A stretch of DNA of 64,000 bases from an uncultured Clostridium sp. (GCA_900555615.1 USMB01000002.1:33230-97229); one strand, 5' to 3'. Shown: positions 2,893 to 49,300, numbered from the stretch's first letter. Notes: generated by a model from the letters alone, not told the origin. Translations and numbers: made by a program.

Positions 2893-4179
2893 TTATTTAA
2901 CAGGAACTAATTTTTCTTTTCCACCCATGTAAGGTTGTAAAACTTTAGGAATTGTAACACTTCCATCTTCATTATAGTTACATTCAAGAAGAGCGATTAA
3001 AGCTCTAGGAGTAGCTAAAACAGTATTGTTTAAAGTATGTACAAATTTATTTCCTGTTTTTGATTTATATCTTATGCTTAATCTTCTAGCTTGTGCATCA
3101 CCTAATGTTGAGCAAGAGCAAACTTCGAAATATTTTTGTTGACGAGGGCTCCAAGCCTCAATGTCGCAAGATTTTACTTTCAAGTCAGCCATATCACCAC
3201 TGCAACAATCTAATTGTCTAACAGGAATGTCTAAACTTCTAAATAATTCAACAGATATTTTCCACATTTTATTGTACCATTCCATAGAATCTTCTGGTTT
3301 GCAAAGAACAATCATTTCTTGTTTTTCAAATTGATGAACTCTATATAAACCTCTTTCTTCAAGACCATGTGAACCAATTTCTTTTCTGAAACATGGAGAA
3401 TAAGAAGTTAGAGTAATAGGTAATTGAGCTTCATCAACGATTTGATCCTTGAATCTACCAATCATGCTATGTTCAGAAGTTCCAATTAAATATAAATCTT
3501 CACCTTCAATTTTATACATCATAGCTTCCATTTCATCAAAAGACATAACACCATCAACAACATTACTTCTAATCATGAAAGGTGGGATGCAGTAAGTGAA
3601 ACCATGTTCAATCATGAAATCACGAGCATATGCAAGCATAGCTTCATGTAATCTAGCAATATCTCCAACAAGATAATAGAAACCAACACCGCTTGTACGT
3701 CCAGCGCTTTCTTTGTCAAGACCATTAAATCTATCAATAATATCAGCATGATGAGGAATTTCGTAACTTGGAACAATAGGGTCTCCAAATCTTTGAACTT
3801 CAACATTTTCACTATCATCTTTTCCAATAGGAACAGAAGCATCAATTATATTAGGAATTTTCATCATTCTTACTTTGATTTCTTCAGAATATTTTTCTTC
3901 CAATTCTTCGTTTTCAGCAAGAGCATCATTTATTTTTTGAACCTCTTGTCTGATGCTTTCAGCTTCATCTTTTTTACCAGCTTTCATTAATTGACCAACT
4001 TGTTCGCTTAATTTTTTTCTATCAGCTCTAAGGTTGTCGCCATTCAATTTAGCTTCTCTATTTTTTTTGTCCAAATCTAAAACTTCATCAACCAAAACCA
4101 ATTTTTGATCTTGGAATTTTTTCTTAATATTTTCTTTTACTAAATCTGGATTTTCTCTAATTAACTTTATATCAATCAT
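2893..4179 (-). CDS. serS: Seryl-tRNA synthetase
   Basis: 428 aa. N-terminal coiled-coil arm. Class II aaRS core motifs (FRKE..S, GLYRVHQFEK.E, and the GDMADL/VHTLNNT region). Full-length colinear with bacterial SerS. Confidence 0.9.
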   Translation of the reverse strand: MIDIKLIRENPDLVKENIKKKFQDQKLVLVDEVLDLDKKNREAKLNGDNLRADRKKLSEQVGQLMKAGKKDEAESIRQEVQKINDALAENEELEEKYSEEIKVRMMKIPNIIDASVPIGKDDSENVEVQRFGDPIVPSYEIPHHADIIDRFNGLDKESAGRTSGVGFYYLVGDIARLHEAMLAYARDFMIEHGFTYCIPPFMIRSNVVDGVMSFDEMEAMMYKIEGEDLYLIGTSEHSMIGRFKDQIVDEAQLPITLTSYSPCFRKEIGSHGLEERGLYRVHQFEKQEMIVLCKPEDSMEWYNKMWKISVELFRSLDIPVRQLDCCSGDMADLKVKSCDIEAWSPRQQKYFEVCSCSTLGDAQARRLSIRYKSKTGNKFVHTLNNTVLATPRALIALLECNYNEDGSVTIPKVLQPYMGGKEKLVPVK

Positions 4180-4294
4180 TTTAATCGCCCTTTCTGTATT
4201 TTGATGTAGTAATTATACAATAAAATTCAAGAAATATCAATAAAAATTACATAATTTGTGAATAATAGAAGTAATTAGTTTGTGAGGTGGAAAT

Positions 4295-5182
4295 ATGAAA
4301 TTGTTATGGGAAATTGTTCAATTTTTATTTTATACAGGATTGATAGTAGTTATTTCTAAATATTTACTTTTTAGAACATTGCGAAGTCTAGCAGAAAATT
4401 TGAAGTTAAAACCAAAGACAGTAGGGGATATAGCAGGTGTTGCAACCTCTGTACCAGAACTCTTAACCATTAGTGCATCAAGCCTAAGTGGGTTGAACAC
4501 AGCTGGTATTTATAACATAATAAGTTCAAATGTAATTAATTTAATTCAATATTTTGCTGCGATTTTATTAAATAAAAATCAAAAAATTTTTAGAAATAAA
4601 GCCATTTTTATAGATGTAATTCTTGTTGTTATCACAATTATTTTGCCAATACTTATTGTCTGGAGCGGAGTAGAAGTAGACTTGAAAATGTTGCCAATAC
4701 TGCTTTTGTTGTATATCGGATTTGTGCGAATAGACAGAAATGTGCATAAATTGTATTTGAAAGATGCAGAGGAGACGAATGATGTTGAGGATGTGAAATA
4801 TGTGGGTGATGTGAAAAAGACGAAACATGAGAATAAAGAATGGCAAAAGGGAAGTCAAGTAGATAAAAAAACTGTAGCTAAAAATATTTGTATATTAATA
4901 ATTACAGCAGTATTGCTATTTTTCATTGGAGAATTGTTAGGAAATACCCTAGAAAATTTGTGTAGAAAATTTAATGTTCCAGAACTAATGATAGGAATCA
5001 TATTGGGGTTTGCTACAAGTATACCAGAATTGATAACATTCTTTGAAGCGCAAAAACATCATTCAAAAGAACAAAACAATATTCATGGAGTTGTTGAGGC
5101 TACAAATAATTTGCTTACATCAAATATGATGAATTTATTTATTATTCAATCTATTGGAATATTAATAGCAAGTTTTGCATAA
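4295..5182 (+). CDS. Ca2+/cation antiporter (CaCA family, YrbG-like) membrane protein
   Basis: 295 aa and multi-TM. Two alpha-repeat motifs typical of Na+/Ca2+ exchangers (GDIAGVATSVPEL and GFATSIPELIT). RBS GAGGTGG present. Confidence 0.65.
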   Translation: MKLLWEIVQFLFYTGLIVVISKYLLFRTLRSLAENLKLKPKTVGDIAGVATSVPELLTISASSLSGLNTAGIYNIISSNVINLIQYFAAILLNKNQKIFRNKAIFIDVILVVITIILPILIVWSGVEVDLKMLPILLLLYIGFVRIDRNVHKLYLKDAEETNDVEDVKYVGDVKKTKHENKEWQKGSQVDKKTVAKNICILIITAVLLFFIGELLGNTLENLCRKFNVPELMIGIILGFATSIPELITFFEAQKHHSKEQNNIHGVVEATNNLLTSNMMNLFIIQSIGILIASFA

Positions 5183-5183
5183 A

Positions 5184-5216
5184 ATGTGAAAAAAAGGACC
5201 GACCCCAAATTCGCAA
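5184..5216. repeat. Half copy (right arm only) of the type 1 palindromic element, copy B
   Basis: atgtgaaaaaaaggaccgaccccaaattcgcaaagg matches 32 of 33 nt of the right arm and flank of copy A (2124-2158). There is no left arm upstream. Confidence 0.5.
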
Positions 5217-5228
5217 AGGAGGAAGAAA

Positions 5229-5516
5229 ATGCAAGAAGAATATTTAATCGAAAAGATGATAAAAGGGAAGAATGACAAGGAAAAAGAGTTAGAATTAATG
5301 AGAAGCATAATTGAGACAAAAGAACTATTAAAAGTTGCAAGATGCAATTTTGAATACGCAGAAGATGAGCTGATTGATTATTATACTTATCAAATAAAAG
5401 CACATCAATCTAAGTTGGATTATCTTATTAAAATTGCGAAAAGAAAAGGAATTGTGCTTAGTAGAATTAATGAACTAATGGCGAGATTATATAGAAATAA
5501 TAATAATGTGGTATAG
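5229..5516 (+). CDS. yaaL: YaaL-like (DUF2508) small protein
   Basis: 95 aa. Strong RBS AAAGGAGG. DUF2508-like ID..Y..Q.KA.Q.K.DYLIK motif. The position immediately upstream of bofA mirrors the B. subtilis yaaL-bofA order. Confidence 0.45.
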   Translation: MQEEYLIEKMIKGKNDKEKELELMRSIIETKELLKVARCNFEYAEDELIDYYTYQIKAHQSKLDYLIKIAKRKGIVLSRINELMARLYRNNNNVV

Positions 5517-5529
5517 AAAAGATTAAAGA

Positions 5530-5557
5530 ATATTTGTCCGATGTTCAACATACAAAT
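5530..5557 (+). promoter_or_regulatory. Putative sigma-E-type promoter upstream of bofA
   Basis: ATATT(5530-5534), 14-nt spacer, CATACAAA(5549-5556). This matches the Bacillus sigma-E consensus (ATATT -14- CATACA-T). B. subtilis bofA is sigma-E dependent. Confidence 0.4.
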
Positions 5558-5639
5558 TATAATAAATGCTTAGATAGTCTAAAGGATAGGTTAAGAGATC
5601 GTTTAAGTTTATTAATTTGTTGATGTTGAGGTGAATGCA

Positions 5640-5909
5640 ATGGATGTTAATATGAGTATTCTTGTAATAATTTCTTGTATATGCATATTGTTTGTAATTG
5701 GAAGGATTTTTATTGTTCCTATTAAATTGATAGCAAAATTAATTTTAAATTCGATATTAGGTGGAGTTCTTATATGGATAATTAATTTGATAGGCGGAAT
5801 ATGGAGTTTTCATATAGGATTGAATTTATTGACTTCAATTTTAGTTGGAATATTAGGTGTTCCAGGTGCTTTACTTCTTATATTCATAAGGTTGATGGTT
5901 GGAGTTTAA
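5640..5909 (+). CDS. bofA: Pro-sigma-K processing inhibitor BofA
   Basis: Two TM helices and a GILGVPGALL motif matching the BofA GILGIPG signature. ~85-90 aa. The start is ambiguous between ATGs at 5631, 5640 and 5652; GAGGTGA at 5622-5628 favours 5640. Confidence 0.7.
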   Translation: MDVNMSILVIISCICILFVIGRIFIVPIKLIAKLILNSILGGVLIWIINLIGGIWSFHIGLNLLTSILVGILGVPGALLLIFIRLMVGV

Positions 5910-5995
5910 ACAAGTAGTTAAAATTCTAATAATTCACATATTTATTTTATATAGAAAAATCACCCATTAGGTAAGTCTTATTACACAATAAAAAA

Positions 5996-6039
5996 GCAAG
6001 GGGTAACAACTTAATGTTACCTCTTGTTATACCCCTTGC
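5996..6039. terminator. Long hairpin, likely terminator for the minus-strand 6078-6338 gene (weakly bidirectional)
   Basis: gcaagggg...ccccttgc outer stem with nested taacaa/ttgtta. On the minus strand it is followed by TTTTTTATT. On the plus strand it is preceded by an A-run. A second small hairpin gcagcggttaggctgc+TTTT at 6048-6075 may terminate bofA. Confidence 0.55.
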
Positions 6040-6077
6040 TTGCGAGGATGGTGCAGCGGTTAGGCTGCTTTTAATCA

Positions 6078-6338
6078 TTACCAGTCAACCCTGTTAAAAT
6101 ACAGGATTTCCTCTAATTTCTGACAAGCGTCATCGAAAATGACTATATCCGCCTTGCCAGGAAACTGTTTCAGGAAAGTTCTTTCAAACTCCCCACGATA
6201 CTTCAGATTAGGACCGTAAAGTCTAACCATAGGTATAACTTTTTCTTCCCCTGTTTCCAAGTTACGGATAACAAAGTCAGAAGAGTTCGTTTTCAACCGG
6301 ACGGAAATTGCCTTTTTGGCGCTAATCATAGTAATCAT
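6078..6338 (-). CDS. Hypothetical small protein (86 aa)
   Basis: Good RBS (GGAGGT 7 nt before the ATG). Followed by a terminator. No family recognised with confidence. Confidence 0.5.
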   Translation of the reverse strand: MITMISAKKAISVRLKTNSSDFVIRNLETGEEKVIPMVRLYGPNLKYRGEFERTFLKQFPGKADIVIFDDACQKLEEILYFNRVDW

Positions 6339-6403
6339 ATAGACTACCTCCTCTAAAATTAAGATACTTCTATTATACTACAAAATTCGACAAAATGCAA
6401 ATA

Positions 6404-8932
6404 TTAAATAATTTTGTTGAAATTTCCATTTGTGAATTCTTGACCTTCTAATTTTTTGCCAGTTTTTACTGTGTCAATTATATTATTTATTTCAGATATT
6501 GATTCATCTAAAATGTCGATTCTGACTGAATTTACACAGATTTCATCATGTTCGATAGATGTGATTTTACTATTGTAGATTGTGGTAACAGTGTCAACAT
6601 TGTCAGGGATAACTCTAAACAAAAATCCAAGTCTATCTTTTAAATAGAATTTATTTGTTGAATTACATAGGTGAGGACAAGCTGAATAGCATTTATTTGA
6701 CTTTCCAAGCAAACAGTAATTAGAATTCATTAATGGGGTTCTTCCATAAACAATCAATTCTGTTGAGCAAGATGTTCTGGCAAATGTTTGTAGATCTGAT
6801 TTGTTTAACTCTGGAGAAAGTGTCACGGTGTTTTTAGAAGAGTCAGCTAATTCTGCAATTGTCAAATTGTTGAAAACATTTAATGTATAGTTATAAATAA
6901 ATTCATATTTGTCTTTATAATTTTTTAATAGTTCGAGATTGCCTATATTTGAAAGCACAAATCCTTTGATTTTATACTGTTCAAGTATGGTTGACAAATT
7001 GTTTGCAATTATTTTGTGATAATTATTTCTCATAATTGTTGGCATATAAATATAAGTTTCAAAATTTTCAGTTAATTCAGCCATAACATTCTTGAAATCT
7101 TTAAGTACGAAATATTTTAGTGGAATATAGACTTTGTCGATTCCGTGCAATTGAGTGTAATCAAAATTTGGGCTTAAGATGTTAAGCAATACACTGATTT
7201 TTTTATTTGTGTTAGAATTTTTTGCAGGATTTATGTCCAATCTAGGTAATTTCAAATTTCTTCTAAAAGATTGCACAAGCAAAGCTTCGTATTGAGCTAA
7301 AGCATGACGTCTAAGCTCGTTGATTGCACTGATTCCTTGAATATATAGACCATCATCCAAATCAATTTCAATATTTTCAAAATGAAATGGAGTATTGTTA
7401 GTCTTAGAAAGTTGAGCAGCTAGACGCTCTTGAGTTATAGGTGCATTTATAGCCTCAACAGGAATTATGTCAGAAGTTATTTTTACTTCATGTGAATTAA
7501 AATCTGAAACATAAAGTTCAACAGGCTGATTTCGCTTAACTATCATCTTACAATTTAAATTTATTTTACGATTTTCTTTATTTAAGGTTTCAAGGGCAGA
7601 AGTGGTAAGCAATTTATCAGCAATTTTGTAGATTTTATCACCAACAGAAATGTTGCCTTTCATTCTACCAATCTTGATTTTGTCGCCACATGTGGCTTGT
7701 AGCACATTTTTATCTTGAATCATCAACTCAGAAATTGTATATGTTGAAGTTTCATGCTTTTTATTTTCTACACTAATTTTGTCGCCAACTCTTACAGTTA
7801 CATCTGAATCTCTTGAAACAGTAAGAGAAATGTGACCTTTGTTATTGTTAAAATTAGAAATAGTGCCTAAATAAATTCCCATATTATTAGATTTATTTTT
7901 ATATATTAAATTTTTATTTGGAGTACTTTCTAGGTGACCACTAGAAAATCCACCACGGTTGAATACTTGTAAAAGTTCAGTTTTGTCCTGAGGATTTATT
8001 TTGTACTCAGACCTATTAGCTTGAGCTAAGTCTAGGTATTTTCTATAAATTCTTGTTACAGTTGCAACATATTCAGGCGTTTTCATTCTGCCTTCAATTT
8101 TTAGGCAAGTTACGCCAGCATCAACTAATTCAGGTAAATAATCTAATCCACATAAATCACGAGGACTTAAAAGATATCCTTTATCAAGTGAAGTTAAACT
8201 TTCAGAAGATGCTGAGCTTAGATTAGCAGAAGTTAAATTTGCTAAATGCGTTGTAAGTGATATGCCTTGTGAGGCTGAATCTGTTGAGGTTGTTGAGCCT
8301 TGTTGATTTGAAGTTGTTGAACTGCAAGAAAGTAATTCATATGGAAGACGACAAGGTTGAGCACATTTGCCACGATTACCAGAACGTCCTCCAATCATGC
8401 TTGAAAATAAGCATTGGCCAGAATATGAAATACATAAAGCACCATGTGCGAAAACTTCAATTTCTACATTAGAATTCTTACAAATATGTTCAATTTCTTG
8501 CAAAGAAAGTTCACGAGAAAGAACAACACGAGAAAAGCCAAGCTTTTGTAATTCAAGAACTCCTTCAAGATTATGTACAGACATCTGTGTGCTTGCATGA
8601 ACAGCAAGTCCAGGAAAATTCTTAATTAAATAACGTGCAAGACCCAAATCTTGAACAATTATTGCATCAATTCCGTATTCATAAGCTTTTTTTGCTAATT
8701 CAATAGCATCATTAATCTCATCATTTTTTATTAAAGTATTTAAAGTAAGATTTGTTTTTACACCACGAAGTTTGGCGTAAGATATTGCTTTTTCTAAAGC
8801 AGAATCATCAAAATTAGAAGCAAAAGCTCTTGCACTAAAAGAACTTGCTCCAAAATATACAGCATCAGCTCCATTTTGAACTGCTGCTTTTAAACATTCG
8901 AAATCACCAACTGGTGAAAGTAACTCTATCAT
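6404..8932 (-). CDS. U32 family peptidase (collagenase-like) with C-terminal DUF3656-like extension
   Basis: The true start is MIELLSPVGDF, with AGGAG 7 nt upstream (ATG at 8932). The ORF-track start at 9010 lacks an RBS. Carries U32 signatures (E.L..P.G, ..AGADAVY.G, CAQPCR). A ~45-aa S/T-rich low-complexity insert follows the CAQPCR motif. Confidence 0.8.
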   Translation of the reverse strand: MIELLSPVGDFECLKAAVQNGADAVYFGASSFSARAFASNFDDSALEKAISYAKLRGVKTNLTLNTLIKNDEINDAIELAKKAYEYGIDAIIVQDLGLARYLIKNFPGLAVHASTQMSVHNLEGVLELQKLGFSRVVLSRELSLQEIEHICKNSNVEIEVFAHGALCISYSGQCLFSSMIGGRSGNRGKCAQPCRLPYELLSCSSTTSNQQGSTTSTDSASQGISLTTHLANLTSANLSSASSESLTSLDKGYLLSPRDLCGLDYLPELVDAGVTCLKIEGRMKTPEYVATVTRIYRKYLDLAQANRSEYKINPQDKTELLQVFNRGGFSSGHLESTPNKNLIYKNKSNNMGIYLGTISNFNNNKGHISLTVSRDSDVTVRVGDKISVENKKHETSTYTISELMIQDKNVLQATCGDKIKIGRMKGNISVGDKIYKIADKLLTTSALETLNKENRKINLNCKMIVKRNQPVELYVSDFNSHEVKITSDIIPVEAINAPITQERLAAQLSKTNNTPFHFENIEIDLDDGLYIQGISAINELRRHALAQYEALLVQSFRRNLKLPRLDINPAKNSNTNKKISVLLNILSPNFDYTQLHGIDKVYIPLKYFVLKDFKNVMAELTENFETYIYMPTIMRNNYHKIIANNLSTILEQYKIKGFVLSNIGNLELLKNYKDKYEFIYNYTLNVFNNLTIAELADSSKNTVTLSPELNKSDLQTFARTSCSTELIVYGRTPLMNSNYCLLGKSNKCYSACPHLCNSTNKFYLKDRLGFLFRVIPDNVDTVTTIYNSKITSIEHDEICVNSVRIDILDESISEINNIIDTVKTGKKLEGQEFTNGNFNKII

Positions 8933-8967
8933 AAATTTGCTCCTTTTATTAAAAAAATCTCCGGTAC

Positions 8968-9005
8968 AAAATTGACAAGGTGTCAAAAAACACCGACCCC
9001 AAATT
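8968..9005. repeat. Partial palindromic element, copy C (type 2: ttgacaNNNtgtcaa core plus right arm)
   Basis: aaaattgacaaggtgtcaaaaaacaccgaccccaaatt. About 90% identical to copy E (15682-15720). Lies in the 5' leader of the U32 peptidase gene. Confidence 0.5.
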
Positions 9006-9058
9006 AGCATAATTATATCATAAAAATTTCAAAAAATATATAAAAAATAGGAATATAA

Positions 9059-9087
9059 TTGACAATTTAACATAAAAATGGTATTAT
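9059..9087 (+). promoter_or_regulatory. Sigma-A-type promoter for the 9168 gene
   Basis: TTGACA(9059-9064), 17-nt spacer, TATTAT(9082-9087). The palindromic AATTGACAATT also reads TTGTCA-17-TATATA on the minus strand toward the U32 peptidase gene. Confidence 0.5.
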
Positions 9088-9167
9088 ATAAGAATGCATA
9101 AGAAATGCACGAGGTAAAAGTTAAACTGTTAGAAAACTAGGAAAAGCAACTTAAGGAGGAAAACATT

Positions 9168-9554
9168 ATGATTAGTTTTGTATGGTTGATAGTAATAGGG
9201 ATAATTTTTTTATGTGAGATTATTTTAATTAATGATCTAGAAAAGCCCAATAGTATTGTAAGAAAAATTTACAATCGGATAGAATATCTATGTGATCCAC
9301 AAAAATATGTAGCGTATGCTTTAAAGAAGAATACGCTTGCATGGAAAAAGATTGAGGATATCGAAAATCTGCAAAAAGCAATTTCAATTGATTTAGAAGA
9401 AAATGAAGATAATTTAGTTGTTTCTCATAATTTGATTGAAATTGGGTATGAAAAATATTGGAAACTATATCTCTTCATGGAAGAAAAAAAGAACGTACAG
9501 ATTATGTACGTGAAATATGATGCACTGTGCCTCATGAACCCCTATAAAGTTTAA
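9168..9554 (+). CDS. Hypothetical small membrane-anchored protein (128 aa)
   Basis: RBS AAGGAGGA. N-terminal TM helix. Followed by a terminator. Confidence 0.55.
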   Translation: MISFVWLIVIGIIFLCEIILINDLEKPNSIVRKIYNRIEYLCDPQKYVAYALKKNTLAWKKIEDIENLQKAISIDLEENEDNLVVSHNLIEIGYEKYWKLYLFMEEKKNVQIMYVKYDALCLMNPYKV

Positions 9555-9586
9555 CTTACTGATAGCATTGCTGTTAGTAGACAAAG

Positions 9587-9616
9587 AAATCTAGTTTTTC
9601 AACTAGATTTTTTTGT
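9587..9616 (+). terminator. Rho-independent terminator
   Basis: aaatctagtt/aactagattt 10-bp stem, 4-nt loop, then TTTTTTTG. Confidence 0.65.
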
Positions 9617-9750
9617 TATTTTTTGTTATTTTGCTGTAACATAAATGTAATAAAAAAAAAGTATGCCAAATGTTGACTTAATTGAAAATTAAATGATATA
9701 ATAATGTCGAATAAATATGGAAAAAACATGAATAAACAAAAGAGGTGTAT

Positions 9751-11484
9751 ATGATGAAAAAAACGAAGCAAATATTGTCGATTTTGCTAATTTTATATAT
9801 AATAATAAATTTGATTTTTGGAAATATTTCATTTGCAGTAAATCAAACAACAACAAATGATTTTAATTCAATTGATTCAAACACATATCCACAGATAAAA
9901 GAAATGATACAAGAACTAAAAAATCAATATCCAAATTGGAATTTTGAAATTTTGTATACAGACATAAATTGGACAGATGCAATAGCAAATGAATATGTTG
10001 GACACGGAAGTTCTCCAAGAAATTTAGTTCCAGCAAATAATATTAATTATGACAGAGATTGGATATGCAATGTTTGTGGAGAGCAAACATATGATAGTGG
10101 AAAATGGTATTGTGCATCAGAGGCAGCAATTGCCTATATGATGGATCCAAGAAATTCATTAAATTACAGTGATATTTTTCAATTTATGCAATTATCATAT
10201 ACAGATTGTAATTATGAAAGAATATATGCAATGGTTGAAGGAACATTTTTACAAAATAGTGTAAATGTAATAATTGATTCAGCACAGAAATATGATGTTA
10301 ATGCATATTATATTGTCGCAAGATTATTGCAAGAACAAGGAAAAAATGGTTCTACATTAACTGCAGGAAATGGATACAATGGACAATATGAAGGATATTA
10401 TAATGCGTTTAATATAGGAGCAAATGGAAACGGAAAAGAAAATGTTATTTTAAATGGATTAGCAACAGCCCAAAGTTATGAATGGACATCTTTAGATAGT
10501 TCAATAATTGGTGGAACTGAAATAATTGCCAAAAGATATATTGCAAGAGGACAAAACACATTATATTTTCAGAAATTTGATGTAGAAAATTCAGATGGAA
10601 ATTTGTATTGGCACCAATATATGCAAAACATTTTAGCAGCTCAAAAAGAAGGACAAACATTAAGAAATACATTTGAAGATATTGATGCAATAAATGCATC
10701 ATATACGTTTATTATTCCAGTATATAAAAACATGCCATTATCAGCTTCTCAAAGACCATCATCAACATCTTCACCATCAAATCCAGTTAATCCAGATACT
10801 CCAACAACAAGTGATATGGTAAGAGTTAATGTTACAGGTTCACTATATTTAAGAGAGGAACCAAGTAAAAATTCAGAAAAAATAGATAAAGTATATAAAG
10901 ATGAGATAGTAACAAGATTAGTTAAAGCAACAGAGAAAGTCGATGGTACATATTGGGATTATGTAATGAAAGCAAATGGATCAAGAGGCTATGCTGCTAG
11001 AGAAACATATGATACTGAGCCTAATTACAAATTATACTTAGTACCAGTAGAGGATGAAAATCCATCAACTCCAGAGGTTCCAGATGATGAAGCAGTTATA
11101 AGAAATGATAAAGTTAAAATTAATACAGTAACTAATAATGTAACAACTGTTCCAGGTGCAACAGTTCAAGATTTTTCAAATCTTATTGGTAAAGATGTTA
11201 CTGCTAAAAATTCAAATGGTGATGTTTTAAACTCTGATGCTAAACTTTCAACAGGCTGTGTAATAAATGATGAATATACTGTTGCAGTCCTTGGTGATGT
11301 TAATGGAGATGGGGAAACAACAGCATTGGATGCGGCAATTATATTAAGGTATACTGTAAATCAATATAATATGACAGAAGTTCAAAAAAATGCTGGAGAT
11401 TTAGCAAATTCAAATAATCCAACAGCATTAGATGCAGCTAAAATATTAAGATATACTGTTGGACAGTATAATATAAACATATAG
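9751..11484 (+). CDS. Secreted cell-wall hydrolase: GH73 glucosaminidase domain + SH3b + C-terminal dockerin
   Basis: Signal peptide. GH73-like LLQEQGKNGSTL...YYNAFNIGA segment. SH3b-like VRVNVTGSLYLREEP...YWDYV segment. C-terminal duplicated dockerin repeats GDVNGDGETTALDAAIILRYTV and GDLANSNNPTALDAAKILRYTV. ATG at 9751 after AAGAGG. Confidence 0.7.
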   Translation: MMKKTKQILSILLILYIIINLIFGNISFAVNQTTTNDFNSIDSNTYPQIKEMIQELKNQYPNWNFEILYTDINWTDAIANEYVGHGSSPRNLVPANNINYDRDWICNVCGEQTYDSGKWYCASEAAIAYMMDPRNSLNYSDIFQFMQLSYTDCNYERIYAMVEGTFLQNSVNVIIDSAQKYDVNAYYIVARLLQEQGKNGSTLTAGNGYNGQYEGYYNAFNIGANGNGKENVILNGLATAQSYEWTSLDSSIIGGTEIIAKRYIARGQNTLYFQKFDVENSDGNLYWHQYMQNILAAQKEGQTLRNTFEDIDAINASYTFIIPVYKNMPLSASQRPSSTSSPSNPVNPDTPTTSDMVRVNVTGSLYLREEPSKNSEKIDKVYKDEIVTRLVKATEKVDGTYWDYVMKANGSRGYAARETYDTEPNYKLYLVPVEDENPSTPEVPDDEAVIRNDKVKINTVTNNVTTVPGATVQDFSNLIGKDVTAKNSNGDVLNSDAKLSTGCVINDEYTVAVLGDVNGDGETTALDAAIILRYTVNQYNMTEVQKNAGDLANSNNPTALDAAKILRYTVGQYNINI

Positions 11485-11494
11485 GAGATTGAAT

Positions 11495-13192
11495 ATGAAA
11501 AATAAAGTAAAAATAAGTTTATTTGTATTTTTTATAATATTATTTGGATATTATATAAAATCAAATGCAGCAATATTGGCACAATCAAAACAAGTAAATT
11601 CAGGTGAACAATTTTCTGTAAATGTAACATCAGATGTTTCTCTTGCATCATATAGTGTTAAAGCACAAAGTTATGATGGATTGGAATTTGTTGGAAGTAG
11701 CGGAGGAATAGGAAGTGGAACGACAACAATTTCTAGTGCATTAGCTCAAGGCGGAACAACTAATTTGGCTACATTTACATTTAAAGCTCCAACTGTCGAA
11801 AAGGATACACAATATACAATTAAATTTTCAGCTACAGGGATGGGGGACGAAACTTTAACACAAATACCTAATTCAGATAAAAGTGTTACAATAACAGTTA
11901 AAGCTCCAGAAAACAATAATTCAAATTCTAATAATGATGGTAATAGTGGAAATAATGGTAGCAGTGAGCCAGCACAAAAATCAACAGAAGCAGTATTAAG
12001 CAATTTAAAAATACGACCAAATGACTTTACAGGGTTTAAGCCAAATAAGAAAGAATATTCTGTAGAAGTTCCAAACAGTACATCAGAAGTAGAAGTTTAT
12101 GCTACAGCATCAAAGGGCGAAATTATATCAGGTCTTGGAAAAGTAGCATTAAAAGAAGGCAATAATACTGTAGAAGTAGTAGTAAGGGCAGAAGCTGGTA
12201 ATACAGAAACATACACATTAAAAATTAAAAGAAGAACAGCAGAAGAAGAAGCGCAAAATGCATCTGATGCAACATTAAAAAATCTAGGAATAAATCCAAA
12301 AGAATATGATTTTTCAGGATTCAAAAAAGATCAGACAGAATATAGTGTAGAAGTACCAAATGAAATAAAAACAGTCGAAGTTTATGCAGAAGCAACAGAT
12401 TCAAAAGCTCAAGTAACAGGAACAGGAGACATAGAATTAAACGAAGGTGCAAATGAAGCGAAAGTAGAAGTAATAGCACAAGATGGAACAAAGAAAACAT
12501 ATACAATAACAATAACAAGAAAAGCATCAGAAACAGCTGCTACAACAGATTCAAAATTTGGATTATCAAGCCTATCAATAAGCGGTCAAACAATAAGTCC
12601 AAATTTTAAAAATACTATTTATTCATATACTGTTGGAATAAAAGAAGATATTTCAAGTTTAGAAATAAATGCTGTTGCAACAGATAAAGAAGCAAAAATA
12701 GAAATCATGGGAAATGAAAATTTACAACAAGGTGAAAACACAATAACAGTGATAGTAAAAAATGAAAAAACAAATCAAACAGTAACATATAAAATTACAG
12801 TTAATAAAAATGTAGTTAGTGAAACAAAAGTAGAAAGAAACTTTTTTAATCCATCAACATGGGGAAAAGAGATGATTATCAAATCAATAATTGTAGCAGT
12901 TTTAATTTTATTGATTATAATTGCAGTGGTATTGAAAGTAAAAATATCTAAAGAAGCAAAATTAGAGAATGGTAATGATAATCATGATGATATTGACTTC
13001 CCAGGAGCAAATGAATTAAATAAGGCTATTGCAGAACATCAAGAATTAAGTGAAAATAATGAAAAAAATGAAGAAAGTAAAGCAAAAAAATATGTTGAAA
13101 ATGATGCAAAAACAGAAGAAAAAATGAAAAAAATTGATGCTGAAGAAAATGACGCTAATGCTAGTGGCAGAAGAAAAGGAAAGCATTTTTAA
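11495..13192 (+). CDS. Membrane-anchored cohesin-domain protein with four cadherin-like beta-sandwich repeats
   Basis: Signal peptide. ~110-aa cohesin-like module (V.SGEQFSVNV......L.SYSVKAQSYDGLEFVG). Four ~85-aa repeats of the form NLKIRPNDF.GFKP.K.EYSVEVPN...VEVYA. A TM helix and a charged tail. Starts 11 nt after the dockerin gene stop, with AGGAG 7 nt upstream. Confidence 0.65.
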   Translation: MKNKVKISLFVFFIILFGYYIKSNAAILAQSKQVNSGEQFSVNVTSDVSLASYSVKAQSYDGLEFVGSSGGIGSGTTTISSALAQGGTTNLATFTFKAPTVEKDTQYTIKFSATGMGDETLTQIPNSDKSVTITVKAPENNNSNSNNDGNSGNNGSSEPAQKSTEAVLSNLKIRPNDFTGFKPNKKEYSVEVPNSTSEVEVYATASKGEIISGLGKVALKEGNNTVEVVVRAEAGNTETYTLKIKRRTAEEEAQNASDATLKNLGINPKEYDFSGFKKDQTEYSVEVPNEIKTVEVYAEATDSKAQVTGTGDIELNEGANEAKVEVIAQDGTKKTYTITITRKASETAATTDSKFGLSSLSISGQTISPNFKNTIYSYTVGIKEDISSLEINAVATDKEAKIEIMGNENLQQGENTITVIVKNEKTNQTVTYKITVNKNVVSETKVERNFFNPSTWGKEMIIKSIIVAVLILLIIIAVVLKVKISKEAKLENGNDNHDDIDFPGANELNKAIAEHQELSENNEKNEESKAKKYVENDAKTEEKMKKIDAEENDANASGRRKGKHF

Positions 13193-13206
13193 GTTTGGCT
13201 TGGTGA

Positions 13207-13271
13207 TAATTTGGTGTCGGTGTTTTTCTTGACATTCTTGTCAAAAAAAAAACACCGACACCAAATTGACA
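13207..13271. repeat. Palindromic intergenic element, copy D (type 2, full)
   Basis: aatttggtgtcggtgtttttcttgaca ttc tgtcaaaaaaaaaacaccgacaccaaattgaca. The arms are near-perfectly complementary. Directly follows the cohesin gene stop. Its 3' end supplies the TTGACA of the tRNA promoter. Confidence 0.7.
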
Positions 13272-13294
13272 TTTTAATTAGCATATACTATAAT
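13266..13294 (+). promoter_or_regulatory. Consensus sigma-A promoter for tRNA-Thr
   Basis: TTGACA(13266-13271), 17-nt spacer, TATAAT(13289-13294). About 23 nt upstream of the mature tRNA 5' end. Confidence 0.65.
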
Positions 13295-13317
13295 GTAAAT
13301 GTTCTGTTTGAACTTAT

Positions 13318-13393
13318 GCCACTATAGCTCAGTTGGTAGAGCGACGGATTCGTAACCCGTAGGCCAGCAGTTCGATTCTGCTTGGTGGCACCA
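13318..13393 (+). tRNA. tRNA-Thr (anticodon CGU)
   Basis: 76 nt. 7-bp acceptor stem (GCCACUA/UGGUGGC), D-arm GCUC/GAGC, anticodon loop UUCGUAA, T-arm AGCAG-UUCGAUU-CUGCU, encoded CCA. Confidence 0.85.
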
Positions 13394-13602
13394 ATGATGT
13401 ATTTGTTTGAACTAGTAGAACAGATAGAGACAAAATTTTGGGCATGAAGATATTTCATTTCTTATGCAAACCACTATAGTATATAATATAAAATAAATCA
13501 ATATAAAAGAAACGAAATTTCGCAAAACTTTTGAATGAAGTTTTATGTATTTAACTTAACTTTCAGCTACTTTTGTAGTAAGATAGAAAACCAAGTGATT
13601 TT

Positions 13603-15795: not shown

Positions 15796-17376
15796 ATGGA
15801 AATAAATATGACAAAAGAGACTTTAAAAGTTAAAAAAGTTATCTGTGAAAAAAAAGAAATGATAAGCATACAAGGTGACATGATAGTGCCAGATTCAAAG
15901 CCTGATATATTAAGTACTGTAAACACGAGTGGAACCATATGCATATATAAAAAAGAGATGATGGATGGAAAAATAAGAATTGATGGAAATGTTCTTACAT
16001 ATATAATGTATCTTGCTGATACTAGCTCGAGAGAGAATATGAATGATAATATTAGGGGATTGAATACAGGATTGGATTTCTCTGAGACGATAAGTGTTCC
16101 AGATTTGCAGGAGGGAATGAACGCTGATTTGACGCCTACTATAAAGCTGATTGAATGTAAGATTTTGAATGGAAGAAAGATTTCTATAAAAGCTTCTGTT
16201 GAGGTGTCAATTAAGGTGTATTCAACAGATCCGATTGATATTATAACAGACATGAATGACAGCAATATTCAAGTGCTTAGCAAATCTATGAGGGTAAATT
16301 CTTTACTAGGTGATGGGATGACAAAGTCATCTATTAAAGAAAATATTTCGATTCCTACTACAGATAATCTTGCAGAGATTTTGGGCGAGCAAGTTTGCTT
16401 GGTTGATAAAGATATCAAAATTAGCTATAATAAAATTTTGGCTAAATCAGAGGTTGAAGTTAAACTAATTTATTTAACTGAGGATGGCAGAATTTGCACT
16501 ACTAGAAATCGTTTACCACTTGTAGGTTTTATCGATATGCCAAACATAAAGGAAGATAATATTTGCGAGCTTTCTTATTTAATTAAGAACATCATCATTA
16601 AGCCTAATTCAGTGGAGGAGCACACTGTATATATTGAGATGGAAGTTGAAATTTCTTGCATCGTGTATGAAGAAAAAGAAATTAAGAGCATTCAAGATAT
16701 GTACTGTCCTGGCGAAAAGATGGATTTTGACCAGACGATGGTTAATACGATTTCTAACAAACAATGCAGAAAAAGTACGTGTAGCATCAGAGAAAAGGTC
16801 AATGTGCCAGAGTTGCAAAATGTAGAACAGAGTAAGATTATCGATGTTGAGGTAAATCCAACTATCGAAAAACAAAATAAGATGAATGGCAAAATCAAAT
16901 TTGAGGGAGAGGTTGAACTTAACTTTATTTTTATGGAGGCAGCTACGAGCACAATCAATTCTAAAAAGGCAGTGGTTCCTTTTGAACAGACAGTTGATGG
17001 AATTGAAGGCCTAGATGATTGCAAAGTTGATACAAATATAGACATAGATTCACAAAGTTTTGAAAATCAAGCTGGAACAGTCAGTGTAAATATTGATTTG
17101 AGCTTCGAGGTTAGTGCTTATAGAAATTCAACAATTCCCGTAATTTCAAACATTTCTATGGAAGAAGATGACGAAATGGAAGATTACAGCGTTGTTATTT
17201 ATGTGGTTAAAGCAGGGGACACTTTGTGGAAAATTGCGAGAAGGTTCGGAAGCACGGTTGACGATATTGCTAGAGTGAATGGGATGGAAAATCCAAATAA
17301 ATTAAATGCCGGAGAAAAAATCTATATTCCTAAATTTGTACTTAAAAGAGCGAAAGAGCCAATTGTTCTGGCATAA
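15796..17376 (+). CDS. SpoVID/SipL-like sporulation protein (repeated DUF3794-type region plus C-terminal LysM)
   Basis: 526 aa. C-terminal LysM (YVVKAGDTLWKIARRFGSTVDDIARVNG...GEKIYIP). The N-terminal two thirds resembles the DUF3794 region of SpoVID/SipL. RBS GAGGAGG. Confidence 0.6.
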   Translation: MEINMTKETLKVKKVICEKKEMISIQGDMIVPDSKPDILSTVNTSGTICIYKKEMMDGKIRIDGNVLTYIMYLADTSSRENMNDNIRGLNTGLDFSETISVPDLQEGMNADLTPTIKLIECKILNGRKISIKASVEVSIKVYSTDPIDIITDMNDSNIQVLSKSMRVNSLLGDGMTKSSIKENISIPTTDNLAEILGEQVCLVDKDIKISYNKILAKSEVEVKLIYLTEDGRICTTRNRLPLVGFIDMPNIKEDNICELSYLIKNIIIKPNSVEEHTVYIEMEVEISCIVYEEKEIKSIQDMYCPGEKMDFDQTMVNTISNKQCRKSTCSIREKVNVPELQNVEQSKIIDVEVNPTIEKQNKMNGKIKFEGEVELNFIFMEAATSTINSKKAVVPFEQTVDGIEGLDDCKVDTNIDIDSQSFENQAGTVSVNIDLSFEVSAYRNSTIPVISNISMEEDDEMEDYSVVIYVVKAGDTLWKIARRFGSTVDDIARVNGMENPNKLNAGEKIYIPKFVLKRAKEPIVLA

Positions 17377-17392
17377 AATTTGAGTGGTGCGA

Positions 17393-18154
17393 ATGGATAA
17401 AATTGATAAGATTTATTCAAGAAGGAGATTTGTGTTAGGAAATTTTGGTGGTGAACGTGGCGGAAAATGCAGAAAGAGCAAAATTCCTTCTAATTATAAT
17501 AAGTATAAAATCTATAAATTTAGAAAAAGTGTTGTTTTGATTGCTGTGATAATAATTGCTTTTGTGGCATTAAGGACGGCATTTAGAAGGATAGATCCGA
17601 TGTTTGAAGCTTTGTGTGAGGAAAGGCTAAAATACAAGGCTACTATTATTACCAATCAGCAGTCGACAGTTGTTATGGAAAAGTATAAGTACGAAGAACT
17701 GTATACTGTTGAAAGAGATGAAACTGGAAATGTGACAGTGATAAGGGCAAATGTCCTTCCTATTAATAATATGATTTCTGATTTGACAGAAAGCATTCAA
17801 AATGAATTTGAAAAGATGGAGAAGAGTAAAATTTATATTCCTTTTGGGAGTTTGACCGGCTCATATTGGCTTGCAGAGTATGGACCTAGTATTCCAATAA
17901 GTTTTTCGATGTTGGGCACTCTTGATACTGAAATTAAGAGTGAGTTTGTGGCTCAAGGTATTAATCAGACTTTACATAGAGTTTGGGTGAATTTTAGTTG
18001 CGATATGAAGGTTGCTACTCCTTTGAAGATTTATAAAGAGAATGTGGTTAATCAGGTGGTTCTTGCTGAACATGTTATTGTTGGGAATATTCCTGATACT
18101 TATTATAATTTTGATGGTGTGGGACAGGATGAAGTTTTGAATGTGATAAAATAA
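17393..18154 (+). CDS. yunB: Sporulation protein YunB family
   Basis: N-terminal TM anchor. Conserved core IPFGSLTGS.L....GP.IPISF...G.....E....GINQTLHRVW. Starts 16 nt after the upstream gene, so probably co-transcribed. The track's GTG at 17384 is an alternative start. Confidence 0.6.
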   Translation: MDKIDKIYSRRRFVLGNFGGERGGKCRKSKIPSNYNKYKIYKFRKSVVLIAVIIIAFVALRTAFRRIDPMFEALCEERLKYKATIITNQQSTVVMEKYKYEELYTVERDETGNVTVIRANVLPINNMISDLTESIQNEFEKMEKSKIYIPFGSLTGSYWLAEYGPSIPISFSMLGTLDTEIKSEFVAQGINQTLHRVWVNFSCDMKVATPLKIYKENVVNQVVLAEHVIVGNIPDTYYNFDGVGQDEVLNVIK

Positions 18155-46303: not shown

Positions 46304-46354
46304 TTATATAGATAAATAAAATAGGAGTTATGAGTCAAAAAACGGAGGATAAAC

Positions 46355-49300
46355 ATGTTAAAAAAGAGAAAAAATGTAAGAAAAATAATAGTATTATTAA
46401 TGAGTATAATTTCAATAATAAGTCTTGGTATAAATTTAAATAAAGTAACAAAAGAAAAATATAATCCAGCATTAAATTTATATAATGCTAGTGAAACGAT
46501 AAATATAGACAAAGGTGAAATAGATCCAATATATAGACCAAAGTGGGAAAAAGTATCAAGTTCTTTTAGTGCAGCCAATAAAACACTAACTGTTATAGTA
46601 AAAGGTTCTGCATATGAAAATAAAACAATAGATGCAAATACGCAAATAAAGTATGCAAGTGATGTAATAAGTACTTTAAGTGCATCAAATGTAAAAGTAT
46701 TTATAGATGGAGTAGAGGTAACAAGTACAACAAATCCAACAGTAAAAATAACAGATACTAAAACATCAACAAATACAACATCAGGAAAAAAAGAAGTAAC
46801 ACATACAATTCAGTTATCAAACCTAGAAGAAGCAGTAAGACAAGCAGGAAAAAACTATAAAGAATGGAGTGGAAATATTGCATTAAAAATAACAGGAAGA
46901 GGTCAAGATGAAAGTACATATTCATCAAATGTATTAACAGATGCTGATGGAAATCACAGCATGATGGAAATCCAAGAAGATGGAGCATGGGTAAATATAG
47001 AATTAAAAGATACAAAAACAGACCATAATACAGATAATGTAATGTTTGCGGATTATATAAAACCAGAATTCACATATGTATATGCAGCAAAAGATATAGA
47101 CCATACAAACAAAACATTAACAATAGATTTTTCTATAACAGATAAATATTTTGATAGCACAAAATTGATAACAGATACAAATGGAACATTAACAGCAAAT
47201 CAATCAGTAGTTAATCAAATTACAGTTGCTATGAAAGATGATGCTACAACAGCAGTAAATACTAAAGTAACAAAGAAAATAACCAATATTCAATATATAA
47301 CAGAAAAAAGAGATAATGAGAATGTAAGAATTGGAGCAAAATTTACTTTAGTAATTGGAAATTTACAACAAGAAACATCAAGTGGAAATTATAGAGATTA
47401 CAGTGGCCCAATGAGTATAACATTTCCAAAAGAAATTGCATCAGATAAATCTGGAAATCAAAATGATGCAAAGACAATTACAATAGGTATAGGAGAACCA
47501 AGTAATTCTGGAAGTCAACAAATAGTCGATGTTGTAGACCCAGTATGGAGAGTTGAAAATTTACAAAAAACAGTAAATAGCACAACAGGAAAACTTACAG
47601 CAACAATGGACATATATGGAACAGATAAATATTTTAAGCAAAGTACATTAACAGCTGAACAAATTCAAGTATGGGTAGATGGAGTAAATATTACAGCATC
47701 AGGAAGTACAGCTAAAATTTCTAGAACATTGACAAAAGTAGAAGATTTAACAGAACAAAGAGATGGAAAAACAGTAACATATGGAATTCATTATAAATAT
47801 ACAATAACGGACTTGGAAGAAACTGATGCATTATTTAATGCAGAAAGAGCAAAATATGCAGCTAACACAAGTACTGGTAGAGTATATAGAGAATATTCAG
47901 GAGATATGAGTATTGTAATACCAGCTAATACAATGGTCGACAATTATACAAATACAAATAAAGCTTTAACTTATTCTTTAGGACATATAGATTCAATAAA
48001 ACCAGAAATTATCAAGATATCTTCAACAAGAGATGCAACAAACAAAAAAGAAACGTTTGTATTTGATGTAGTAGATAAATATATTGCAAGTTCAGCATTA
48101 GGAACAACAGTAACAGAAGCAAATAATAACAAATCTAAAGTACATGTATTTGTTGATGGAGAGGCAGCAGATAGTGTAACAAAGAATTATACAAGAGTAA
48201 CTCCGTTATCAGCTAAGATTAATGGAACAAGCAAAGTTGTAGGATATAGATATACATTAGAATTAACAGGATTTGAAAAAGCAAGAACAGCAATTAACTT
48301 TAATAGAGAATATTCTGATTGGAGTGGTAATGTAACATTAGAGATTGATGCAGGGGTTGCAAAAGATACTGCAAATAATTTTAGTGTAAAAACAGTATTT
48401 ACAGGAGATTTTGTAGATTTTATAAAACCAAATGCAACATATCAATATGCAACAGCTGATATAGATCATACAGATAAAACATTTACAATGGTGTTTGATG
48501 TAACAGATAAATTCTACAGTTCAGGAACATTAGCAATAGGAGATTTAACAATTAAGATAGATGGAAAAGATGTAGATTGGAACAAAGTAAGCAAAAGCTT
48601 AACTGTTGCAGATAGACAAAATACTGTAAAAATCACAGAAAACGGAGTAGTAAAAAGTGTAACAAAAACAATTGGTAAACGTTATACATTGAAATTATCT
48701 AATTTGGAGCAAATCCAAACAAGAGATACATCTGGAAATTACATTTCTTACAGTGGTGTAGTTACAGTAGCAATACCAGGAAGTAAGTTTAGTGATACAG
48801 GTGTTGATGGACAAAATACATCTCCAAATAGAAATGATGGAACTACAATAACTTCTGGTATAAATATTCCAGGTGGAAGCGGAACAGGACAAGTAGTCGA
48901 TGTAGTAGATCCATTAGTAGAAAGATTAAATTCATCAGCTAATGCAGTAAATAAAACTGCTACAGTAAAATTCAACATAACAGATAAATATTATGATGCA
49001 ACAAAGGCTGCATTAACACAAAATGATATGAAAGTTCTAGTAAATGGAACAGAAGTTACAGGAAAAATAACAGGATTTTCTACTAAGGCATTAACAGAAT
49101 CAAAAACAACAAATGGTACAACTTCACAAGTACAATACGGAGTTGAGTATACAGTAACAATATCAAACTTTGATACTTCTGCAAATCAAGTATTACTTAG
49201 AATACCACAAGGTAAAGTAATAGACCAATATGGAAACAGTAATAAGCAAACAGATTTGATTTTATACAATGTATTAAAATCAGCAGCATCAGAAGCAGAT

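Follow-up and report, generated by a model that had tools for sequence, protein, structure and literature searches.

Why should a secreted peptidoglycan hydrolase end in a dockerin, and what might this dockerin bind? The question is raised by two adjacent genes in a 64,000-nucleotide (nt) stretch of DNA from an uncultured Clostridium sp. (GCA_900555615.1, USMB01000002.1:33230-97229), which was analysed at its full length and is here called the window; all coordinates refer to it unless a related locus is named. Gene 1 (9751..11484) encodes a hydrolase with a C-terminal dockerin, and gene 2 (11495..13192), located immediately downstream, encodes a protein with the architecture of a membrane-anchored stalk. 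A sequence-only reading of the window had proposed that the two proteins form a cognate cohesin-dockerin pair that tethers the hydrolase to the cell surface. The proposal is supported by the predicted fold of the gene 2 tip, the Pfam Cohesin score of a module in a related locus, the conservation of the gene pair, the co-variation of dockerin and tip, their exchange within a single species, and a fusion protein encoded elsewhere. We consider it probable that the two modules constitute a cognate, allele-specific cohesin-dockerin tether, which would hold the autolysin on the producing cell at a fixed distance from the membrane.

A hydrolase gene and a stalk gene arranged head to tail

Both genes are located on the + strand and are arranged head to tail. 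The first open reading frame (ORF) extends from an ATG at position 9751, with AAGAGG placed 5 nt before it, to a TAG stop codon at position 11484, and encodes a secreted peptidoglycan hydrolase of 577 amino acids (aa) with the order GH73-SH3b-X-dockerin, where X is the position of an unclassified module. The second ORF, of 565 aa, extends from an ATG at position 11495 to a stop codon at position 13192. The spacing between them is 10 nt, GGAG precedes the ATG of gene 2, and no terminator-like hairpin was found in the 10-nt spacer region. The same-strand arrangement suggested by the sequence-only reading is thus confirmed, and, as far as can be read from the sequence, the layout is that of a two-gene operon.

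Domain scans and reading of the sequence indicate that gene 2 encodes a type I membrane anchor protein that contains, in this order, a signal peptide, a cohesin-like tip, a linker rich in asparagine and serine, three Cadherin-like domains, a transmembrane (TM) helix, and a charged tail. The signal peptide, read from the sequence, is predicted at aa 1-25 (…YYIKSNA/AILAQ; 11495..11569), and the linker between the tip and the stalk is found at 11909-11989. The stalk (11990..12805) consists of beta-sandwich domains of the Cadherin-like family (PF12733), with units starting at 11990, 12269, and 12560 (aa 166, 259, and 356). Four such repeats had been anticipated; the family assignment was borne out by the scan (E = 5.7e-33, 113.7 bits against a cut-off of 24.2), but the match falls into three stretches, or repeat units, rather than four. 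The C-terminal TM helix that had been noticed earlier is predicted at aa 460-480 (MIIKSIIVAVLILLIIIAVVL; 12872..12934), and it is followed by an 85-aa tail (12935..13189) rich in lysine (15 residues), glutamic acid (14), and asparagine (11), which is presumed to be cytoplasmic. In a type I membrane protein with this architecture, the tip would be the module farthest from the membrane. The precomputed annotation of gene 2 lists Cadherin-like only, and no SLH domain was reported by Pfam.

The tip module is predicted to adopt a cohesin fold

The tip of gene 2 (aa 25-141, about 115 aa; 11567..11917) was modelled with AlphaFold2 as a compact beta-sandwich, with a predicted local distance difference test score (pLDDT) of 96.3. 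In a Foldseek search of this model against 350,542 PDB chains, the top six matches were all cohesins from solved cohesin-dockerin complexes, with E-values of 2e-5 to 4e-4 and query-normalised template modelling scores (TM-scores) of 0.51-0.71. The matched cohesins are from Clostridium cellulolyticum (2vn6), Ruminococcus flavefaciens (5n5p), Clostridium thermocellum (4fl4), and Clostridium acetobutylicum (6kgf), the best matches being 2vn6_A by E-value (2e-5) and 5n5p_A by query-normalised TM-score (0.71). The modelled tip spans 117 aa, compared with 138-151 aa in the matched cohesins.

The Pfam Cohesin model (PF00963) gave no match to the whole gene 2 protein. When the tip of the window was searched in isolation, it scored 19.8 bits (E = 9.6e-4), which is below the cut-off of 24.1, and the match was confined to positions 58-139 of the 139 positions in the model. 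Similar scores (17.8-17.9 bits) were obtained for the tips of two related loci, L001 and L002, and the module in the equivalent position in L032 scored 32.9 bits, which is above the cut-off. We refer to the tip as cohesin-like because of the sub-threshold profile score, the fold matches to cohesins, and the L032 module that passes the Pfam threshold; on the model, it is a compact and divergent member of this group. The cohesin-like module postulated from the sequence is therefore supported by its fold, whereas the Pfam search that had been suggested as a check remained below threshold.

A word-indexed search with the tip recovered only two matches, and an exhaustive search recovered 96 representative relatives, nearly all of which are proteins of 440-580 aa that carry the module at their N-terminal ends, at residues ~25-140. 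An alignment of 38 of these 96 relatives, A1, served as input for AlphaFold2. The tips can be sorted into discrete types, with A1 representing type A, to which the window belongs, and two further alignments representing types C and D (A4) and types B, B', F, and H (A5). In searches against PDB sequences, the best cohesin match of the A1 profile was 5n5p at an E-value of only 0.2, the A4 profile gave no match, and the A5 profile gave nothing significant. The profiles do align with each other, at probabilities of 96% for A4 against A1 (104 aligned columns), 95% for A5 against A1 (101 columns), and 98% for A5 against A4 (98 columns), these being small alignments of modules that are alike in composition. 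Some members of the tip family also have weak matches to Ig-like Pfam families. From these comparisons, it is likely that all tip types share ancestry.

The dockerin contains two nearly identical helices

The dockerin of gene 1 (aa 515-577; 11293..11481) contains two repeats of 22 residues each, and their helices, TALDAAIILRYTV and TALDAAKILRYTV, are near-identical. It matches Dockerin_1 (PF00404) with 33.1 bits when the whole protein is scanned and with 37.9 bits when scanned alone, both above the gathering cut-off of 22.9, and the same model matches all 38 homologous C termini. Two canonical dockerin repeats had been reported. Repeat 1 fits this description, with a D-x-N-x-D...D calcium-binding loop (D-V-N-G-D-...-D), but the loop in repeat 2 (D-L-A-N-S-N-N-P-T-A-L-D) is degenerate, with an alanine at position 3 and a serine at position 5; positions 1 and 12 are kept. 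Such a degenerate second loop is present in the window, L001, and L002 only, among the 38 sequences. Both helices of the dockerin in the window are intact, and 12 of 15 residues are identical between them.

Across the homologs, the Ca2+ positions 1, 3, 5, and 12 are nearly invariant, and the most variable positions are located in the helices (11, 14, 15, 13, and 19). Identity over positions 8-22 is 78% between the two repeats of one protein, compared with 29% between dockerin types, and both helices are altered in parallel in every allele. About 13-17 helix types were distinguished among 158 sequences. The parallel change fits with each allele serving its own ligand and with both helices fitting the same one, and the near-identical helices suggest that the dockerin has a dual binding mode, which is probably Ca2+-dependent.

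A word-indexed search with the dockerin retrieved only dockerin-only fragments of 66-107 aa, and the two fragments that were examined are parts of split gene 1 homologs. One of these homologs, in L040, contains an in-frame TAA just before the conserved “YKLYLVP”, downstream of the SH3 domain (~4757-5001), and the other, in L041, is frameshifted just past the same motif (~4885-5001). The interruptions leave dockerin-only ORFs of 79-87 aa that were called separately. The broken genes may be real pseudogenes, assembly errors, or scars at the boundary of the variable region.

Dockerin and tip are exchanged as one cassette

The dockerins and the tips fall into discrete, matched types. The pairwise distances between dockerins are strongly correlated with those between tips (Mantel r = 0.81, p <= 5e-4), and the coefficient is unchanged when the GH73-SH3 region and the remaining part of gene 2 are controlled for. 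Correlations of either module with the GH73-SH3 region are weak (0.09-0.18), while the GH73-SH3 region correlates with the rest of gene 2 at 0.69. By this measure, the two modules are almost uncoupled from the remainder of both genes.

Between conspecific contigs, a block of 571 nt (11317..11887) is replaced as a unit. This swappable cassette starts past the first Ca2+ loop of the dockerin and contains the rest of the dockerin, the stop codon, the 10-nt spacer, the start and signal peptide of gene 2, and the tip up to “...ITVKAP”. The contig L042 is 99.0% identical to the window over 3757-11316 and 99.2% identical over 11888-13438 but is unrelated to it over 11317-11887. The contig L044 shows the same pattern, and the flanks of both are 99.0-99.2% identical to the window. 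Likewise, L035 and L036 share 95-96% nucleotide identity on both sides of a segment of ~560 nt without similarity, which begins with the dockerin and ends with the tip. Equivalent clean block replacements were observed for L014 and L016, for L010 and L022, and for L033 and L039, and 28 of the 38 locus pairs with near-identical catalytic regions have different cassettes. An unclassified module of ~74 aa in the X position (11071..11292), which abuts the dockerin and has no Pfam match, is located outside the cassette; it is conserved in most loci and missing from L018, L022, L023, and L029-L038.

At least three alleles in one species

Two dockerin alleles are present within the 90%-identity cluster of gene 1, namely the type A of the window and type D. 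The 15 conspecific contigs examined, which were chosen for the identity of their proteins and do not represent independent samples, are all concordant, with type A dockerins and tips in four contigs, type D dockerins and tips in the other 11, and no mixed combinations. The type D tip was forecast from the type D dockerin before it was checked, and the forecast held in 11 of 11 contigs. A type B dockerin on a 98%-identical background represents a third allele; here, the forecast type B tip was found in L061 and L063, and the short conspecific fragment L060 encodes a type B signal peptide. Judging from these contigs, there are at least three cassette alleles in the species from which the window is derived.

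The alleles are also shared between species. Identical type D dockerins occur on backgrounds that are 82-100% identical in the catalytic region, which indicates that cassettes have been transferred between lineages. However, the type D tips of more distant species are only 51-57% identical, which is below the identity of their GH73 regions and suggests an old origin of the alleles as well. Recent horizontal transfer as the sole source of the shared types was therefore partly rejected, and old alleles and recent transfers both seem to occur. We also considered an intragenomic shufflon with silent cassettes and rejected it, since a search of the 64 kb revealed no further copy of a dockerin or tip, whatever the type.

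The gene pair is conserved in related loci

A scan of one genome per species identified 39 related loci, all from uncultured gut Clostridia from humans, rabbit, and roe deer, one of which is located on a closed chromosome of 1.55 Mb. The gene pair is kept in 38 of the 39 loci, in 37 as judged by similarity and additionally in L037; the exception is L020, where the locus ends at a contig edge. In L037, the partner protein (7686-8717) contains a low-complexity stalk of ~200 aa, rich in serine and threonine, in place of the Cadherin-like domains, and both the tip and the C-terminal TM helix are kept. Since only the stalk is replaced in L037, the conserved core comprises a dockerin-bearing enzyme and, encoded after it, a tip that is connected by a spacer to a membrane anchor. 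A further GH73-dockerin locus, L028, whose partner is Cadherin-like, is present in the same metagenome-assembled genome as L037. In one lineage, the pair is followed by a third gene (L035, 9230-10348; L036, 9226-10344; L038, 9215-10324), which encodes a GH73 paralog that lacks a dockerin, has a membrane helix at its N terminus, and resembles SagB in its architecture.

The cohesin-like module was also identified outside the gene pair. The protein P0055 (511 aa; L046, 5001-6536) contains a signal peptide, an Amidase_3 domain, a cohesin-like module of type A (aa 260-366), an X-like module, and a Dockerin_1 domain. Judged by its domains, it is an independent association of the cohesin-like module with dockerins and wall hydrolases, and it could serve as an adaptor or be a self-associating wall hydrolase. 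A sortase gene adjoins the gene for P0055.

The hydrolase encoded by gene 1

The exact gene 1 protein was found in NCBI, Logan, and ENA assemblies with no name attached. It belongs to a family of 2,431 clusters in public data, and among the 120 listed, none is named. The precomputed annotation of gene 1 reports Dockerin_1 only, sometimes together with SH3_3.

A signal peptide is predicted from the sequence at aa 1-29 (MMKKTKQILSILLILYIIINLIFGNISFA/VNQ; 9751..9837). The GH73 N-acetylglucosaminidase catalytic domain (aa ~95-326; 10033..10728) was identified by its homology to AtlE and SagB. In phmmer searches against PDB sequences, the matches included Staphylococcus aureus AtlE (4pi7, E = 3.4e-17), Atl (6fxo, E = 3.8e-12), and entries for SagB (4e-11 to 6e-11, with 6u0o at 6e-11), and the NCBIfam SagB model matched gene 1 at 2.3e-18. 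Glu195 (10333-10335), in the motif LLQEQG, aligns with a glutamic acid in 4pi7 that is an alanine in the variant entry 4pi8, and it is for this reason the putative catalytic residue. The motif [ILM][IL]QEQ is present in 35 of 39 homologs, and the one non-matching sequence that was inspected, from L002, reads ILQEQK and thus retains the glutamic acid. The Pfam Glucosaminidase model (PF01832), which had been put forward as a check of the GH73 assignment, gave no match to the whole gene 1 protein at E <= 1 and is absent also from the precomputed annotations of gene 1 homologs. Hence, the assignment stands on the homology to AtlE, Atl, and SagB and the position of Glu195, but not on the proposed model.

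The SH3b domain (SH3_3, PF08239; 10840..11004) expected from the earlier reading was detected with 28.6 bits in an isolated fragment, above the cut-off of 27, and with 23.6 bits in the whole protein. Of ten sequences examined, namely the window and nine homologs, nine match SH3_3 at E <= 0.01 and five score above the cut-off. The domain is presumed to bind the cell wall.

Genomic neighbourhood

A promoter-like site (TTGACT-18-TATAAT with an extended TG; 9673..9702, + strand) is located 49 nt upstream of gene 1. It is a consensus match only, and the region upstream of gene 1 has no excess of promoter-like sites over shuffled sequence. Further upstream, a terminator-like hairpin (9580-9617) closes the preceding ORF and separates it from gene 1. 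This ORF (9168-9554) encodes 128 aa, is conserved in all conspecific contigs, and has no family match.

Downstream of gene 2, there is a tRNA-Thr gene (anticodon CGT; 13318-13393), with a perfect TTGACA-17-TATAAT promoter match ahead of it (13266-13294). The identity between L044 and the window ends exactly at 13393, the end of the tRNA gene, and in the contigs L043-L045 and L047-L050, the place downstream of gene 2 that murC occupies in the window is taken by a gene for a resolvase or large serine recombinase. Because of this breakpoint and the recombinase genes in the conspecific contigs, the tRNA-Thr gene looks like an integration site. The serine recombinase is present with both A and D alleles and located at the tRNA-Thr gene, and so is better explained as part of an integrated element.

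The sequence-only reading had also placed the gene pair about 8 kb from a giant adhesin locus. The distance is correct, with 8.2 kb between gene 2 and the downstream start of the giant ORF at 21353. This ORF (21353-45919) encodes 8,188 aa, and its Pfam matches are DUF285 repeats only. Behind it, a second open frame (46334-64000) runs off the end of the window after at least 5,889 aa. Neither a cohesin nor a dockerin was found in the giant ORF or in the second open frame, and a functional link between the gene pair and the giant adhesin, which the earlier reading had implied, was rejected. Several sporulation genes are located near the pair, including those for SipL-LysM (15796-17376) and YunB (17384-18154) in the window, BofA upstream in conspecific contigs, where a DUF2508 gene is also present, and SpoVG between murC and SipL. 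With this gene content, the organism is probably a spore former.

Alternative explanations

Several observations weigh against a cognate tether. The tip of the window is sub-threshold for Pfam Cohesin and shorter than classical cohesins, and the fold model is for type A only, the other types being tied to it by profile-profile alignments at probabilities of 95-98%. In the dockerin of the window, loop 2 lacks two of the four ligand side chains. Some dockerins with the motif DY(V/M/I)xIKN are alike but have different tips, and the dockerins of L038 and L030 are separated by a distance of 0.27, compared with 0.78 for their tips. The uniqueness of the cohesin-like module and the dockerin applies to the 64-kb window rather than to the rest of the genome. 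In addition, the concordance of dockerin and tip is expected from linkage alone, since the modules are neighbours within a block that has no homology between alleles, and homologous recombination cannot split them. Co-variation by itself is thus no proof that the dockerin binds the tip, and linkage would also suffice if the cassette were a hypervariable surface determinant without any binding, in which phages, host IgA, or competitors select for diversity of the tip, and the dockerin hitch-hikes and has another role or none. Several features fit with such a cassette. The tip is the module of gene 2 that lies farthest from the membrane and is presumably the best exposed, contig ends are found at or close to the locus in several cases, as is seen at strain-variable sites, and the stop codon and frameshift in L040 and L041 are located just upstream of the variable part. 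However, neutral hitch-hiking leaves unexplained that the Ca2+ ligands are fixed while the helix positions are recast and that both helices change in parallel (78% versus 29% identity). Nor does it account for a block edge that is sharp, without decay with distance, and placed just past the first Ca2+ loop, or for a tip with a cohesin fold that is fused elsewhere to a dockerin-bearing amidase. We regard this explanation as unlikely, and it is the fixed ligands with recast helices, the parallel change, and the P0055 fusion that take the case for a cognate tether beyond linkage.

Other readings accept that the modules bind but differ in what they bind or when. The dockerin could be directed at a remote cohesin or a wall polymer, and the tip could be an adhesin or a captor of other dockerin proteins. 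Cadherin-like domains are common in adhesins, the search for further cohesins and dockerins covered the 64-kb window, the third gene in L035, L036, and L038 encodes a membrane-anchored GH73 protein without a dockerin, and Ruminococcus albus has dozens of dockerins and at most one cohesin (PMC4081043). Yet a dockerin with a remote and unchanged partner should not change its helices whenever the tip changes, the two genes are adjacent in 38 of 39 species-level loci, and no second cohesin-like or dockerin sequence was found within the 64 kb, which makes separate partners very improbable. Alternatively, the same tether might operate in sporulation, like the membrane-scaffolded wall hydrolases of engulfment and mother-cell lysis. 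The presence of BofA, SpoVG, SipL-LysM, and YunB in the neighbourhood would be consistent with this, as would dockerins on proteins annotated as SpoIID (K06381) in single-cell genomes of Christensenellales (PMC10266427). Against it, the promoter-like TTGACT-18-TATAAT site, a consensus match only, looks like a housekeeping promoter, and the synteny differs in L040 and L046. Furthermore, GH73-SH3b enzymes are typically vegetative autolysins. A use of the tether in sporulation is accordingly considered quite unlikely, and a cognate tether for an autolysin of the growing cell remains the preferred explanation.

Comparison with known systems

The association of a GH73 enzyme with a cohesin and a dockerin has been noticed before. 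Ruminococcus bicirculans is mentioned in a citing paper as having a GH73 associated with the only cohesin and the only dockerin in its genome (PMC4611034), and the statement in the sequence-only reading that non-cellulosomal use is described for only a few Firmicutes is fair in the light of this mention. Like R. bicirculans, as described there, the organism studied here is a non-cellulolytic gut Firmicute in which the system, as far as the 64-kb window shows, is down to a single pair tied to a GH73. Unlike R. bicirculans, compared here by way of that mention, the lineage consists of small-genome uncultured Clostridia and not of Ruminococcus. No report of a membrane stalk partner, allelic types, or cassette exchange in R. 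bicirculans was found in the literature searched. For R. albus, a published table also lists GH73 entries that bear dockerins (PMC4081043). The class of non-SLH anchoring scaffoldins includes proteins that combine a single cohesin with a TM helix at the C terminus (PMC11557425), and gene 2 resembles these in having a single cohesin-like tip, recognised by fold and not by the hidden Markov model, and a C-terminal TM helix. We found no description in the literature searched of a sub-threshold cohesin, of an operon with a stalk anchor and a single enzyme, or of a matched cassette swap within a species. The co-swapped cassette is thus apparently the new part, no report of it having been found.

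The modules share several features with those of cellulosomes. As in cellulosomal type I dockerins, the helices of the two 22-residue repeats are symmetric to each other, and the Ca2+ ligands are conserved across the homologs, though only in part in loop 2 of the window; as in cellulosomal type I cohesins, the predicted fold is a jelly-roll-like sandwich, with the best matches to 2vn6, 5n5p, 4fl4, and 6kgf. The locus does not encode a cellulosome, since the window has a single cohesin-like module, a single dockerin, and a cargo that hydrolyses peptidoglycan rather than plant polysaccharides, with one enzyme per cohesin and both in one operon. It also differs from cellulosomal pairs in that the cohesin of ~115 aa falls under the Pfam threshold, loop 2 of the dockerin in the window is degenerate, and the specificity would be polymorphic within the species.

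In polymorphic toxin/immunity cassettes, matched allele-specific protein pairs are found on a conserved background. The cassette described here resembles polymorphic C-terminal toxin/immunity cassettes, by analogy and in genetics only, in that a single replacement takes in the 3' end of a gene and the beginning of its downstream neighbour. It is unlike them in that there is no toxin or immunity domain and the downstream partner is an anchor, not an inhibitor. A parallel at the level of function is found in SagB, which is anchored by a TM helix of its own and contacts SpdC inside the membrane. As in the SagB-SpdC system of S. aureus (6u0o, 6fxp), a GH73 glucosaminidase would be positioned by a membrane protein partner, but the positioning here would be by an extracellular cohesin-dockerin contact at the tip of a stalk. 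A use of cohesins in Clostridium that is not related to plant cell walls is represented by the cohesin-FN3 of Clostridium perfringens GH84C (2w1n), which ranked tenth among the fold matches. There, secreted enzymes are joined together, whereas the partner here is a membrane anchor and the enzyme would act on the wall of the producer itself.

Proposed mechanism and implications

We propose that both proteins are exported. The GH73 domain of gene 1 would cut the glycan strands of peptidoglycan while its SH3b domain contacts the wall, and gene 2 would be held in the membrane by its C-terminal helix. The Cadherin-like domains and the linker would keep the cohesin-like tip off the membrane, within or beyond the wall, where it could be bound by the C-terminal dockerin of gene 1. 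In this way, the autolysin may be retained on its own cell for wall turnover or cell separation. The binding specificity would be set by the cassette allele, in which the dockerin helices and the tip are replaced together.

Cohesins and dockerins are known chiefly as the glue of cellulosomes, and here they appear to hold an autolysin on a membrane stalk that spans the wall, in a widespread group of uncultured gut Clostridia with small genomes. Genome surveys based on cohesin models would miss such pairs, because whole-protein Pfam scans give neither Glucosaminidase nor Cohesin. The exchange of cassettes between near-identical genomes is a rare natural experiment on the diversification of a protein interface.

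More tentatively, and with less than even confidence, we suggest that the locus is a polymorphic lock-and-key system, with at least 13 orthogonal and compact specificities, in which old alleles have been passed between lineages and at least three are present in one gut species. Small orthogonal cohesin-dockerin pairs are wanted for designer enzyme assemblies, and if the suggestion is true, the alleles would represent a natural library of such pairs, with cohesins of ~115 aa, for protein engineering. For the bacteria themselves, it would mean that each strain captures its own autolysin only, which could serve to keep the hydrolase private, to discriminate kin, or to escape phages or foreign lysins that use the anchor.

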